Assembly (NCBI GenBank): GCA_951406725.2
Contig: OX597837.1
Location: 11,594,001 to 11,658,000 of the forward strand
Reading direction: 5' to 3'
Source of the DNA: Octopus vulgaris
Lineage: Eukaryota
DNA: 64,000 nucleotides
Part shown: piece after piece, positions 7,396-56,433 of the stretch
Position numbering within the stretch: position 1 is the first letter of the stretch
Layout: every line of letters starts with the position of its first letter
Program-made: the position numbers and the translations under genes
Notes under the pieces: model-generated
Databases searched by the model: none
What the model was told of the DNA's origin: nothing
What the model saw: the letters and a program-made list of their open reading frames with translations, nothing else

Positions 7396-7560
7396 CATAT
7401 TATTATTATTATTATTATCATTACTATTATCATTATTATTATCATTATTATTATCATCATCATCATTATCATTATTATTATCATTATTATTATTATTATC
7501 ATTATTATTATTATCATCATTATCATCATCATCATCATCATCATTATTATTATTATTATT

Positions 7561-7781
7561 CAGTAGTTTTATTTTTATAGCGTGCTTTCACTTCACTACC
7601 GAGCGCAGCTCTGTGTGCCTTAGGTATGTGCTGTGATTTGTTGTGATGCTCTGATGGTTATTGTATGGAAAGTGTTCTGCGTAGGATGTGTGCAGTGCCT
7701 AGTAGTGCAATTTTCTGTATGTTATATATGTTTGTAAGTCCTGGTGTTTTTGTTATGTATTTGTCTGAATTTTTTTTTTCA

Positions 7782-7842
<61 letters not shown>

Positions 7843-8134
7843 CATTATTATTATCATTATTATTATTATCATCATTATCATCATCATCATCATCATCATT
7901 ATTATTATTATTATTCAGTAGTTTTATTTTTATAGCGTGCTTTCACTTCACTACCGAGCGCAGCTCTGTGTGCCTTAGGTATGTGCTGTGATTTGTTGTG
8001 ATGCTCTGATGGTTATTGTATGGAAAGTGTTCTGCGTAGGATGTGTGCAGTGCCTAGTAGTGCAATTTTCTGTATGTTATATATGTTTGTAAGTCCTGGT
8101 GTTTTTGTTATGTATTTGTCTGAATTTTTTTTCA

Positions 8135-8210
<76 letters not shown>

Positions 8211-8492
8211 CATTATTATTATTATCATCATTATCATCATCATCATCATCATCATTATTATTATTATTATTCAGTAGTTTTATTTTTATAGCGTGCTTTC
8301 ACTTCACTACCGAGCGCAGCTCTGTGTGCCTTAGGTATGTGCTGTGATTTGTTGTGATGCTCTGATGGTTATTGTATGGAAAGTGTTCTGCGTAGGATGT
8401 GTGCAGTGCCTAGTAGTGCAATTTTCTGTATGTTATATATGTTTGTAAGTCCTGGTGTTTTTGTTATGTATTTGTCTGAATATTTTTTTTCA

Positions 8493-8495
<3 letters not shown>
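7561..8495 (-). mobile_element. Three tandem 3'-end fragments of an R4/Dong-like RLE non-LTR retrotransposon (7561-7784, 7916-8137, 8272-8495)
   Basis: Minus strand encodes KKNSDKYITKTPGLTNIYNIQKIALLGTAHILRRTLSIQ*, then a short 3'UTR ending in (TAA)n; period 355-356 bp. Confidence 0.85.
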
Positions 8496-8562
<67 letters not shown>

Positions 8563-8580
8563 CATTATTATCATCATTAT

Positions 8581-20155: not shown

Positions 20156-20746
20156 GCCCTGATGCAGTACCAGGTAGTGGCTCTCATGGATGCCCTGATG
20201 CAGTACTAGGCAGTGGCTCTCATGGCTTCTGATCTTAACTGATTGGAAGTGTTATCATGTACATTGTTTTGTCTTGGTATAAAAGATGGGCTACGGCAAA
20301 TATTCTGCTCAGTACCACAGATTTGCTTGTCAGTTGTTTGACCTTAACCAGTTGAGCATGTCCCTTAGTGGCTGACGATATGTGCATCTCTGATCACGAG
20401 CAGAAGTAGTGGGGGAGCATCATAGCCATGTGTTGAGAGGGATTCTTTGGGGGTTTGAATAATTCACCTCTGGAAACATGGGTGGTTCTTTCAACATCCT
20501 TAAACAACTCTTATTCAGGGACCTTTTGAGCGGGATGGGCTACTCAACCTGAAGAAAATTCTAACTGGGCCCCACCTGCAAGGTCATGTGCTGTTTATCT
20601 TGATATGAGATCACCATGTCGCGCACATATGGTTGTGATGCATGTGCCTGGTGTACGCTTATCAGACGGGTAGTCATGATGGGTATATTGGGCTTCGTAT
20701 ATTTTACCCCAGTGTCACTTTGATGGCATGAACTGCTCTCTCACTC
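20154..20746 (+). mobile_element. Family C retroposon, longest copy (593 bp, 36-bp 5' duplication)
   Basis: (TAA)n on both sides; copies at 4307 and 11639 share the same 3' end. Confidence 0.85.
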
Positions 20747-20802
<56 letters not shown>

Positions 20803-20805
<3 letters not shown>

Positions 20806-21257
20806 CGTACTTTTGCCATTTCAATATGGCTAACCCCTAAGGGTGGATGCTACTGTAGTTTTTAGCCCCAGGAGGACACACTCCTCCAGCTGGCCATAGA
20901 CACACTTTCTGTGTCCTGTCAGTATTTGCAAAGGGAAGTCATCCTTCCCGTCTTCAACTTATGATACACACGGACTCGAGTTTCGAGGTATTGACCTCTC
21001 GTCAGCGTGTGACAATCATAGTTGTCGGCGAGAATTAGATTCCTTCACAAATACTTATACTTTTTCCAGCGTCCACTGTCGCTGAAATTGAAAAAGTGAA
21101 ATCAAACAATGATAAATATCAAAGTGAGTTATATACAGTAGCGGTAACACATCGTGACGTATTTTTGCCATTTCAATATGGCTAACCCCTAAGGGTGGAT
21201 GCTACTGTAGTTTTTAGCCCCAGGAGGACACACTCCTCCAGCTGGCCATAGACACAC
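20803..21257 (-). mobile_element. Candidate non-LTR retrozyme: 1.3 tandem copies of a 352-bp hammerhead-containing unit
   Basis: 20803-20905 is repeated at 21155-21257; hammerhead inside; (TAA)n flanks; second copy at 56051. Confidence 0.78.
20955..21024 (-). ncRNA. Type I hammerhead ribozyme, canonical core
   Basis: caacuaugau-UGU-cacacg CUGACGA GAGG-UCAAUA-CCUC GAAAC-UCGA-GUC cgugug-U-aucauaaguug; predicted cleavage between 20973 and 20972. Confidence 0.9.
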
Positions 21258-21294
21258 AATAATAATAATAATAATAATAATAGAAATAAACATT

Positions 21295-25231: not shown

Positions 25232-26514
25232 TCAGGTTCTGTAAAAGGTAAGAAACGTTTTGAACCATGAAGAATTTGTACCAGATTTTTGCAGAGTTTT
25301 GAATTTTTTTTAAATATTTTTTTTTTGCAAATGTCTGATAATACAGACATAGACTTGCCCAAATGCATTAATAAGTTAACATTGATGTTTTTTCGCCGTT
25401 GTTACAATTATCTGAAATGGAAGTGTCAAAGCGCGATATTCGAGCAATTTTGCTATTCAACTTCAAACAAGGACGTAAAGCAGTTGAAACTGCGCGCGAT
25501 AACAATGAAATGTTTGGTGAGGAAATGATCAGTGAGTGGTCAGCTCGAAAATGGCAGTAGAGACCTGAGCCTTGAAGAACGTGAGCGTAATGGACACCCA
25601 TCTGTCATCGATGACGGTCAATTAATGACCGTCATTGAGAAATATCCACGTAAAACCACTCGAGAACTGGCAAAAGAACTTCATGTTAGCCAGAAAACTG
25701 CCTGCAACCACTTGCATGCGATCGGAAAATCAAAAAGGCTCGACAATTGTGTGCCATACTATTTGAATAAAAAATCAGAAAATGCGCAGATACGAAATTT
25801 GTTCATCGCTTCTTCTCCATAACCAGACCGATCCATTTCTCGACCGTATTGTAACTTGCGATGAAAAGTGGATCCTGTACAATAATAGAAAACGTTCTTC
25901 GCAGTGGTTGGACCAAAATAAAGCACCGAAAACCTTCCCAAAACCCGAGTTCTTCAAAAACAAGGTTATGGTGACTGTTTGGTAGTGAACTGCTACACTC
26001 ATCCACTATAATTTCATAAAACCCGGAAAAACTATTACTGAAGAAATATATTGCCATGAAATATATTGCCAAAATGACCGAAAAACTGCATCTCCTCCGT
26101 CCCAGACTGGTCAACAGAAGAGGATCAGTCATTCTTCATGACAACGTTCGACCACAAGTTTCATTAATGACACTCCAAAAATTGAGGGAACTTGGCTACG
26201 AAGTTCTTCCTCACCCAGCATATTCCCCAAACCTTTCTCCTACCTACTACCACTTTTTCATGCACCTTGATGGTTTCCTGCGACAGAAGGAGTTCAAAAA
26301 TCAACCCATTGCTGAAAGTGTGTTCAAAGAGTTCATCAGCTCCAGAACTCCAGATTTTTATGTTACCGCAATAAACAAACTTGTAACTCGCTGGCAAAAA
26401 TGTGTTGATTGTAATGGTACTTACTTCGATGAATAAAATTTCCACATTTTAAAATTTCATGTGATGAATTTCATGTTTCAAAACGTTGCTTAGTTTTTTT
26501 TCCCCCCAGCATGA
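25232..26514 (+). mobile_element. Full-length defective mariner (DD34D, Hsmar1/cecropia-like)
   Basis: About 1.28 kb; degenerate 30-bp TIRs with flanking TA (25230-31, 26515-16). Confidence 0.9.
25417..26436 (+). pseudogene. Mariner transposase pseudogene
   Basis: MEVSKRDIRAILLFNFKQG.. / RIVTCDEKWILYNN / LHDNVRP / HPAYSPNLSPTYYHFF..GTYFDE*; frameshifts and stops; third catalytic D reads Y. Confidence 0.92.
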
Positions 26515-27601: not shown

Positions 27602-28006
27602 CGCAGGAGTGGCTGTGTGGTAAGTAGCTTGTTTACCAACCACATGGTTCAGGGTTCAGTCCCACTGCGTGGCACCCTGGGCAAGTGTCTTCTACTATAG
27701 CCTCGGGCCGACCAAAGTTTTGTGAGTTGATTTGGTAGACGGAAACTGAAAGAAGCCCGTCGTATATATGTATATATATATGCGTTTGTGTGTTTGTGTA
27801 TCTGTGTTTGTCCCCCTAGCATTGCTTGACAACCGATGCTGGTGTGTTTACGTCCCCGTCACTTAGCGGTTCGGCAAAAAGAGACCGATAGAATAAGTAC
27901 TGGGCTTACAAAAAAGAAAAAGTCCCGGGGTCGAGTTGCCCGATTAAAGGCGGTGCTCCAGCATGGCTGCAGTCAAATGACTGAAACAAGTCAAAGAATA
28001 AAAGAG
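27600..28006 (+). mobile_element. SINE family A
   Basis: Full length. Confidence 0.92.
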
Positions 28007-28157
28007 TATATATAAATAAATATATATATATATACATATATATGTATATATGTGTGTATATGTATACACGTGTGTGCGTGGATGTATATATATATATATA
28101 TATATATATGAGTGCTGTGCGTGTATACACATACATGCATATATACATACATACACA

Positions 28158-28236
28158 TTTGCATACTTTATCTAAAGAACATTTGTCTGTTATTCTGCAC
28201 GAACATACTGTGTCTATAAGAGCGTGTTTGGAGATG
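28158..28236 (-). pseudogene. Penelope-like Cys-rich linker fragment
   Basis: DTVCSCRITDKCSLDKVC, homologous to 32577-32630. Confidence 0.65.
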
Positions 28237-28885
28237 TTTGGATGAAAGAAAGGCGAATACATGTTTTTCTGTACGTGTATGCCTCCATACATGTATGCTT
28301 TTTTGTGTGGGTGTTTGTATTTCAGCAATTCGCTTTGAAATAGCTACGTTCCAAGTTCGATCAAACCATGTGCTCACGGCTGTTTTTTTTTATTTTTTGT
28401 AACATATGCACATGAAACGACATCAGATGAAATACCAGTCTGTATAATATTTTGTTACGTGTGTGTGTGTGTGTCTAAACGTCGATTGCTGTTATGTAAT
28501 ATTCTGTCAGAGACATTTTTGTTTAAAGTTTGGTGCTACAAAATACAGAGTTCGCTCAGAATATCATCGGAACCTTCATCATCGCTGTTTCGATCTCATC
28601 TGGTCCACTTCGTGGCTAATACTCTCGGACATTCGGTGCAAACCCAACAAATATTCTTCCATTAATTAGAACCCTCACTGATTTGTATCAAAGCCGGCCA
28701 GGCTAATATTAAATTAACATAAGTACTTGAAATAATATTAGGTTTAAAATGAGAATATCTATAATATTCATTGTGTACTTTAAACTTTCAAGTACGTGCA
28801 TTAATTTAATCTTAAACAGGCTGACTTTCCCGCAAATCAGTTACTGCTTTGCTGAAAGATTTCTATATCGGAACGAATAATTTTC

Positions 28886-29412: not shown

Positions 29413-29451
29413 TCACTGAGGAGACGAAATATAGTCGAAACGCTGTGTCTG
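29413..29451 (+). ncRNA. Hammerhead core remnant
   Basis: ca CUGAGGA GAC-GAAAUAUA-GUC GAAAC-GCUGU-GUC ug; stem I only about 2 bp because the 3' side runs into (TGTA)n. Confidence 0.55.
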
Positions 29452-32005: not shown

Positions 32006-32576
32006 CAGTTTACTGTGGCTATTGTTAATATTGTTTATTTTAGCAAATCGTGCTATAGTACTTTTTTTTATATATATTTGATGCTTTTTCTATTATATTT
32101 TTTGTTGTGGTTTCTGCTGTCTCTGTTTCATTTGTTGTTTTTCCAGCTGTCGTTGTTGCTGAGTCTGCTGTTGTTTCCCCCAGACCCTCTCTCAACAGAA
32201 AAATCTATAATCAAAGGCGTTCCAATCATGATCCACATATCGGTTTTTCGTTTTTTCGTGTTTGCTTTTAGACAGAGCTTTCTATCAAAGACTACAACGC
32301 TCAGCAAGTCATTCACACTTTTTTAAGAGCGCCGGGTATTATTTTAAAGGAAGCTTCACTGCAGTTTTTAACGCTTCGGATTATCACATAGACGCTTTCT
32401 TTGGGGAAATTTTGTGGGCCAGGGCCGTAACTCTGTAAGAGTACCAGGCTGTATTCACTTTCTGTGTATTATGTATACTTAAAAGAAAAGACCAAAATTT
32501 ATCTGAAAATTCTTCCAGAAATATCTTATGCTCCACACAAGAATCATTAACCACATCTAAAATCGTTACAATTATA

Positions 32577-32790
32577 GACTCAGTATGTTCGTGCAGAATA
32601 AAAGTCAGATGTTCTTTAGACAAAGTATGCAATATTTCGTTAGTTTCCTTCGATGCTGTCACCACAACCTCGCCGAATCAAGTGATAAGTTACATCGGTA
32701 TGATGCAGGGCAGATTTAAGCAAAGATTCTATAACCATTGGTCGTCATCATTCAACTATCCGCAGAAGAGGACACCCACAGTATTGCACA
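32577..32790 (+). pseudogene. Penelope-like element GIY-YIG endonuclease fragment
   Basis: One frame reads DSVCSCRIKVRCSLDKVCNISLVSFDAVTTTSPNQVISYIGMMQGRFKQRFYNHWSSSFNYPQKRTPTVL (CxCR..C..C / YIG..FKxRxxNH..SF pattern); not in the ORF track. Confidence 0.78.
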
Positions 32791-33049
32791 TCTGTGTCTT
32801 TCTACATTTGTATCTTTGTGTGTCTGTGTTTTGATAAGTGTGTCTTGGGGCATTTTGTCTGTAGCAGCGTAAGATAGTCATCAAAAATATTTTATATAAT
32901 TTTTTCATTCTTATAAATTTATCTTGATATTGTGAATTAAAATGTGTTTATAATTTAGATTAATGGCTTTAAACAATGCATTTTGATTAAATTTTTTGGG
33001 TAAATTTTTATTTTATTTTTATTATTGTGTGCTGAGGAGTTGTGAAGTG

Positions 33050-56050: not shown

Positions 56051-56052
<2 letters not shown>

Positions 56053-56383
56053 CAATGATAAATCTCAGAGCGAGTTATAAACAGTAGCAGCAACACATCG
56101 TGACGTATATTTGCCATTTGAATATGGCTAACCCCTAAGGGTGAATGCTACTGTAGTTTGTAGCCCCTGGAGGACACCTCCTCCAGCTGGCTATAGACAC
56201 ACTTTCTGTGCCCTATCAGTATTTGCAAAGGGAAGCCATCCTTCCCGTCTTCAACTTATGATACACACGGACTCGAGTTTCAGAGTATTGACCCGTCATC
56301 GGCGTGTGACAATCATAGTTGTCGACGAGAAGTAAGTTCTCTTCACAATACATATATTTGGCATATATATATCTCAGAGCGAG

Positions 56384-56388
<5 letters not shown>
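56051..56388 (-). mobile_element. Second, circularly permuted and decayed retrozyme copy in (TA)n
   Basis: Begins at sequence equivalent to about 21105 and runs through the equivalent of 20803-21055; hammerhead 56252-56321 has CCGAUGA and a mismatched stem II. Confidence 0.8.

Positions 56389-56433
<45 letters not shown>

Follow-up and report, generated by a model that had tools for sequence, protein, structure and literature searches.

The insertion at the centre of this analysis is a 5'-truncated member of a retrozyme family, probably pasted into its present site by a Penelope-like enzyme that would have used two start sites on a predicted circular RNA of 352-353 nt. It was found in the window, i.e., the whole 64-kb stretch of Octopus vulgaris DNA analysed. 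Retrozymes are a class that is already known, and the window copy is an example of it rather than a unique element. The family to which it belongs is young, non-coding and dispersed, with at least 471 unit copies, nearly all of them in (TA)n. Indeed, an exact 27-mer of the unit occurred 471 times in the genome, against 0 matches for the control, and a genome search gave 2405 candidates, 40 of which, when scored, contained at least 151 matches, mostly 97-100% identical. No cephalopod retrozyme was found described in the literature, although the supplements of PMC7229834 and 10.64898/2026.07.22.740005 could list one; the main text of PMC7229834 contains no cephalopods, and in the giant squid genome paper 235 Hammerhead_1 matches were counted without analysis (PMC6962438).

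Table 1. Features of the retrozyme insertion, its surroundings in the window and the putative helper elements (monomer positions are counted from the ribozyme cut site, position 1 being 20972)
Feature	Coordinates	Strand	Remarks
Whole retrozyme insertion, 1.29 units	20803..21257	-	Monomer positions 68-352, then 1-170; locus L001
Type I hammerhead with extended stem I	20955..21024	-	Predicted cut between 20973 and 20972
Upstream partial unit	21155..21257	-	Positions 68-170; variable 5' truncation at position 68
Insertion 3' end at start site 1	20803..20803	-	Position 170 (family range 170-174); joined to TAA tract
Start site 1, internal copy	21151..21154	-	Positions 171-174; putative reverse-transcription start
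Start site 2	21105..21108	-	Positions 217-220; separated from site 1 by 43-46 nt, which correspond to a Penelope-type tail
Predicted multibranch RNA domain holding site 1	21134..21209	-	Positions ~116-191
TAA tract, used as target	20747..20802	.	Ends a separate interspersed repeat (20226-20746)
TAA tract flanking the opposite end of the insertion	21258..21282	.
Second copy in the window	56051..56359	-	Sister subfamily, ~90% identical; locus L050; in (TA)n; ends at site 2; CCGAUGA core
Decayed Penelope-type nuclease remnants	32439-32834, 27906-28343	+, -	First one matches a young helper (E 6e-6)
Two young autonomous Penelope families	L251-L262, L130-L149

The repeat of 103 bp at an offset of 352 bp, on which the first-pass annotation had based its tandem reading, was recovered as the pair 20803-20905 / 21155-21257 (352 spacing, 99% identity, one difference). 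This redundancy is the result of a fixed 3' end combined with a variable 5' truncation and represents neither an LTR nor a target duplication. The copy differs from the family majority unit at four positions. A unit length of 352 bp holds for the window copy but characterizes only a subtype, the majority unit being 353 bp. Similarly, the (TAA)n tracts seen by the annotation are present on both sides, but they are atypical, occurring at one of 69 loci, whereas the family as a whole targets (TA)n. A single hammerhead is present in the window copy, which therefore cannot release a unit-length RNA or circle by its own self-cleavage. The interspersed repeat at 20226-20746 has two further copies within the 64-kb window. 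The sister subfamily of the second copy (window 56051-56390 (-), L051-L079) has a 352-bp unit, in which CCGAUGA replaces CUGANGA and the first stem II pair is non-standard.

The minus strand carries a complete hammerhead of type I, every element of which reads on 21024-20955 as had been claimed. It involves a 6-bp stem I, prolonged past a UGU/U loop by five plus four more pairs, a CUGACGA core sequence, a 4-bp stem II with a UCAAUA loop, GAAA, a stem III of 2 bp with a palindromic UCGA loop, and a GUC triplet with C17 at 20973. Both the profile match and the stem covariation that the annotation had proposed as checks were found. The Rfam Hammerhead_1 profile matched 20967-21011 (-) with 32.2 bits (E 4.2e-6), just below its gathering score of 34, and hence the scan of the whole window at the gathering threshold returned 0 Rfam matches. 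Genome-wide, the core pattern occurred 915 times versus 0 for the reversed control, and positions 314-352 matched the majority exactly in 109 of 133 units. In an alignment of 26 distinct hammerheads, 89.9% of the cells were able to pair, and two-sided changes were present in 8 of the 21 pairs, mainly in the extended stem I, as compared with a control that ignores relatedness. The 81-nt hammerhead region folded better than most shuffled sequences (z -3.06; 2 of 200 shuffles equally good). Two points count against the ribozyme model. Firstly, the minimum-energy fold of this region retains stem I but lacks stem III, which is only 2 bp long. Secondly, stem II starts with a non-standard pair in 21 of the 26 aligned sequences, whereas this first pair is G-C in the type to which the window copy belongs. 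Other sister families show C-A or U-U at this pair. Fixed variants were depleted in the ribozyme core (0 of 20), but not significantly so when compared with the singletons (p 0.13).

More hammerhead families, unrelated to this one, were encountered at L125:3038-3133, L130:1-238 and L243-L248, one of them as an inverted pair; in others, stem II is shorter while stem III has the same palindrome. The window itself holds a second hammerhead-like core at 29416-29448 (+), with a 3-bp stem II and a poor stem I, which runs into a microsatellite and is probably a decayed Penelope terminal repeat.

Family units follow each other head-to-tail with a period of 352-353 bp, in dispersed arrays with arms of up to six units, in agreement with the multimeric arrays that the annotation had expected from a genome-wide search; by manual reading, two complete ribozymes are present on one arm at 18 of 49 loci. 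The unit has a GC content of 42.9% and no coding capacity, its longest stop-free frame being 61 aa and its longest ATG frame 38 aa. The predicted fold of the circular monomer is strongly self-paired (-112.3 kcal/mol versus -83.9 +/- 5.3 for shuffled sequences; z -5.4; 0 of 100 shuffles as good). Together with the canonical type I hammerhead, these features uphold the original retrozyme reading, and the unit fits animal non-LTR retrozymes, not autonomous Penelope elements, on every feature testable here. Animal non-LTR retrozymes are characterized by tandem units of 150-450 bp, a GC content below 45-50%, the lack of an LTR, primer binding site and polypurine tract and, where present, target duplications of more than 4 bp. 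The fold also contains a predicted multibranch domain (positions ~116-191), two hairpins of which are kept in sister families, with two-sided changes in 4 of 13 predicted pairs (14 rows compared, among which L236 was off target). The domain is a candidate protein-binding element.

Several related sequences were noticed besides these arrays. More distant sister families keep the same layout. A decayed family copy in unique DNA was found from a loose contig end of run X7. A segment that is 77% like unit positions 110-158 lies inside another repeat (L139:100-400, L257 and L258), the ends of which resemble those of a non-autonomous Helitron; pieces related to this segment (73-75%) are present at L056 and L230. 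Near-identical insertion pairs on one contig (L183/L190, L025/L026 and L028/L029) are probably segmental or assembly duplications. Finally, of 24 public runs listed (ten studies, organisms A-G; library type guessed or unknown, none given as RNA), 20 contain the stretch, and eight of these were compared as assembled contigs. Two of them, X5 and X6 (one study), each yielded a 383-nt contig consisting of the 353-nt unit plus a 30-nt overlap, i.e., a closed cycle, which was discounted as evidence for circles since tandem DNA or RNA would look identical.

The closest known counterparts are the non-LTR retrozymes of coral, mussel and axolotl (PMC7229834), which have a type I hammerhead in each tandem unit of about 350 bp, a GC content below 45%, no ORF, a self-paired fold and coexisting Penelope elements. 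Their ribozymes resemble the octopus one as well, the 2-bp stem III with a tetraloop being comparable to the invertebrate motifs and HHR_Amex2 (PMC7229834). In those species, however, cleavage and circles were demonstrated and a helper was only proposed, whereas in the octopus family cleavage and circles are predicted and the insertion ends point to Penelope. Animal retrozymes were considered to show no motif revealing their helper in a 2020 review (PMC7761336). More recently, retrozymes have been argued to be non-autonomous Penelope derivatives, and Penelope mobilisation has been proposed for the tandem hammerhead repeats of frogs (10.64898/2026.07.22.740005). The frog case rests on co-occurrence and terminal-repeat homology, and local expansion was suggested for it (10.64898/2026.07.22.740005); in the octopus family, in contrast, homology to the terminal repeats of two coding Penelope families was not found and the arrays look as if written in one step.

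The insertion footprint makes Penelope a well-supported class for the helper enzyme. Two sets of loci were used, namely 69 distinct loci ranked by BLAST score (set 1; 10 of 79 were dropped as repeats of the same place) and 49 loci of C1, C2 and part of C3 that were retrieved with exact patterns and not ranked by length (set 2). The outer 3' ends of set 1 (n=102) were concentrated at two places, with 46 at position 174, 48 at positions 216-224 and eight elsewhere; the terminal letters assign positions 171-174 to site 1 and position 217 or 220 to site 2. A (TA)n tract adjoins 91 of these 102 ends, and only the window copy sits in TAA. In set 2, (TA)n adjoins 61 of 72 outer 3' ends; its 24 direct copies end at site 1 (20 copies), at site 2 (three) or elsewhere (one), and the other 25 of the 49 loci are inverted. 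Among the latter, 22 have one arm ending at site 1 and the other at site 2 (20 scored by script and two by hand, L196 and L230, after a neighbouring copy had been set aside), three have one odd end, and none of the 25 repeats a site, whether site 1 or site 2. For the 22 paired loci out of 22 the probability is p 2.4e-7, with L183 and L190 looking like one duplicated insertion. Target duplication (8-11 bp) was seen at L217, one of five loci inspected, and is unreadable inside microsatellites. Hence, the copies display two fixed 3' ends with a short tail, 5' truncation, an inverted 5' arm and a (TA)n target, as expected of Penelope-type products, and their variable 5' ends exclude a true LTR. 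From this footprint, we infer that the hammerhead strand is the RNA strand.

Truncation, inversion and (TA)n bias are known Penelope traits (PMC8557442). Endonuclease-bearing Penelope clades likewise show partial tandems, an inverted 5' copy and a tail at one end, but they code for a reverse transcriptase and a GIY-YIG nuclease and have a tail of 30-40 bp, whereas the octopus unit is non-coding and its tail measures 43-46 nt (PMC8557442). In the Penelope system, the tail arises from two internal reverse-transcription start sites, with both strands being cut as well as extended by the protein (PMC11167929). This is the case for Poseidon of the green anole, which also has these two start sites downstream of its hammerhead, with the tail between them, and an AT-rich target; unlike the octopus unit, Poseidon is autonomous (PMC11167929).

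The inverted arm could alternatively stem from fold-back self-priming instead of a second priming event, as was proposed for rotifer Penelope elements (PMC3846280). Although the junction at L135 is palindromic and, by manual reading, the inner ends lie at most 7 nt apart in about five of the 25 inverted loci, they are unrelated in about 20 of them, the longer arm may be either one, and both strands were extended by purified Penelope protein (PMC11167929); fold-back as the source of the inverted arm is thus very improbable. Inner ends are nearly equal at the inversion junctions of L199, L203, L212, L015, L224 and L135, several of them at short unit palindromes, and these junctions possibly reflect a minor fold-back route.

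Coding Penelope elements were retrieved from the genome with the decayed nuclease remnant of the window as protein query. They belong to two young families, which we take to be Neptune-like. Both have nuclease motifs at the C-terminus, (TA)n flanks and a terminal repeat that contains minimal hammerhead-like motifs. In one of them, all 150 scored matches were 97-100% identical, and many contained open frames of 727 aa. As a positive control, the inverted loci examined in both families displayed the same strict pairing, of a short with a long end (8/8 and 10/10), with tails of about 70 nt versus 43-46 nt in the retrozyme. The Pfam result for one helper family was limited to a GIY-YIG match below threshold, and five frames of the window had no useful match. 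A CCGAAGA variant of the hammerhead core was observed in one of the Penelope families. The proposal of the first-pass annotation that Penelope-like elements mobilise the retrozyme is therefore upheld by the insertion footprint, but not by the neighbourhood on which it had been based, as the window holds only decayed remnants several kb away.

The copies might also be read as terminal-repeat remnants of a coding Penelope element, a case that the annotation had named as refuting its own reading. Their Penelope-type ends and target would agree with such an origin, the Penelope ribozymes of this genome have a similar palindromic stem III, and frog retrozymes resemble Penelope terminal repeats (10.64898/2026.07.22.740005). 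However, the units are joined head-to-tail at an exact period of 352-353, and their hammerhead is canonical, unlike the minimal Penelope type. No retrozyme-like terminal repeats were found in 40 Penelope loci, and local alignment of the unit with the two Penelope families revealed no homology (33 and 94 of 200 shuffles as good); these comparisons cover two helper families, and a third could be the parent. The tail region of the unit, used as a genome query, retrieved family copies only. In addition, tblastn with the two Penelope proteins against the retrieved retrozyme loci (except L110-L149) and the window returned only decayed fragments of 28-42% identity, at three places and in the window, and no intact ORF attached to a retrozyme locus was found within the same scope. 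The remnant reading is thereby largely refuted and has hardly any probability left.

As to the template, a ligated monomer circle is likely to be the main route. Firstly, 92 crossings of the ribozyme cut site were counted in 80 arms, as opposed to only two stops within its first 10 nt (2.1 expected); 5' ends do not pile up at the cut site, three of 81 lying within 6 nt of it. Copying thus runs through the cut site, so that the cut linear monomer is not the template and a ligated circle or an uncut multimer is left. Secondly, within-insertion variants at 71 loci (L026, L029 and L190, apparent duplicates, and arms below 90% identity omitted) were fixed in all covering units in 65 cases, partial in nine and singletons in 257. 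Of 46 loci, none was mixed for marker 66T (mean of 28 and minimum of 20 after shuffling), and of 31 loci, one was mixed for marker 297C (mean of 18.8 after shuffling). Changes other than the fixed ones being nearly all singletons, the units of an array arose together, not by stepwise duplication. Thirdly, 13 locus-private variants were fixed across units of different index at nine loci, in many cases on the two inverted arms alike. A series of template jumps along one RNA could, however, give the same picture as a circle. With respect to RNA editing, A>G and T>C changes were present at 7:2 in fixed alleles and 11:14 in singletons (p 0.13).

The same counts bear on the idea that single terminal repeats are inserted and that unequal crossing-over afterwards enlarges them in place into a minisatellite, local tandem expansion of this kind having been proposed for frogs (10.64898/2026.07.22.740005). 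A copy of 1.3 units such as that of the window does offer a 103-bp repeat for unequal exchange, and a local duplication was seen at L015. Stepwise growth predicts, however, variants shared between neighbouring units, of which the nine partial ones, several being alignment gaps, are few against 257 singletons; moreover, one haplotype is common to the multi-unit arms on either side of the inversion at L002, L009 and L230. Such local expansion is accordingly a very improbable origin of the arrays.

The same element and the same Penelope helper could also operate with an uncut linear multimer, transcribed across a genomic array, as the usual template, the hammerhead being largely irrelevant to mobility. 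This view finds its clearest case at L230 (G000:C2:54862800-54868200), where the units of one arm carry the loop-II variant 332C>G as G,G,C,G and those of the second arm as C,G, in register when counted from the 3' end; an index-matched variant of this kind in two arms requires a multimeric template there, either linear or a trimer circle. Unit-mixed variants at L015, L196 (position 348) and the older L071 count against a circle as well. Furthermore, the purified Penelope protein of a lizard worked mainly on uncut RNA, and ribozyme mutants left insertion unaffected (PMC11167929), autonomous Penelope copies in the octopus genome likewise form tandems, and the daughters of a uniform source array would be uniform themselves. 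On the other hand, linear copying that is truncated at the 5' end will only make arrays shorter; nevertheless, private variants are fixed over up to five to six units (L044 and L230) and, as mentioned above, across differing unit indices, and despite the 257 singletons a clear index-matched variant on two arms was present at just one of the 71 loci. An uncut multimer as the usual template is thus rather unlikely, without being negligible.

Under the preferred reading of a circle copied by a Penelope enzyme, arrays with at least two ribozymes would be transcribed, as may be supposed from known retrozymes (PMC7229834). The hammerhead would then excise the monomer, perhaps as a dimer via the palindromic stem III, and a host ligase would close it into a circle. 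The Penelope protein would nick both strands of (TA)n, as its footprint suggests, and use site 1 for priming from one strand and site 2 for priming from the other. The enzyme would circle the RNA until it drops off, yielding direct or head-to-head arrays, and the window copy would be a single-arm product of site 1, made in 1.29 turns, that landed in a TAA tract. It counts against this scheme that only one of nine predicted frog retrozymes cleaved in vitro (10.64898/2026.07.22.740005).

A more general proposition, to which we assign a little less than even likelihood, is that Penelope proteins prime the two nicked strands of TA repeats at different, non-interchangeable RNA sites and that circles exploit this through a structural mimic, without homology to the helper, each insertion being a rolling-circle copy of one RNA. 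If true, a single mechanism would account for the Penelope tail, the inverted arms and the retrozyme tandems, and would represent a natural circle-templated gene writer. The step in which a circle serves as template has so far been a model, for which the uniformity within insertions provides a genomic argument in favour of a monomer. Similarly, the match between the insertion ends and those of coding Penelope families of the same genome provides genomic evidence for Penelope mobilisation. The helper and the template questions both become testable in vitro, given a 353-nt RNA whose two starts have been mapped and helpers that have open frames.

Other repeats were present in the window too. A 355-bp tandem with ATT tracts (7432-8580; 3.2 copies) was considered as a relative of the retrozyme and rejected, as it is unrelated and has no hammerhead core; its minus strand resembles the C-terminus of an R4/Dong-type retrotransposon. 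Lastly, the region 25803-26436 contains a remnant that we take to be a Tc1/mariner transposase, albeit without a Pfam match.
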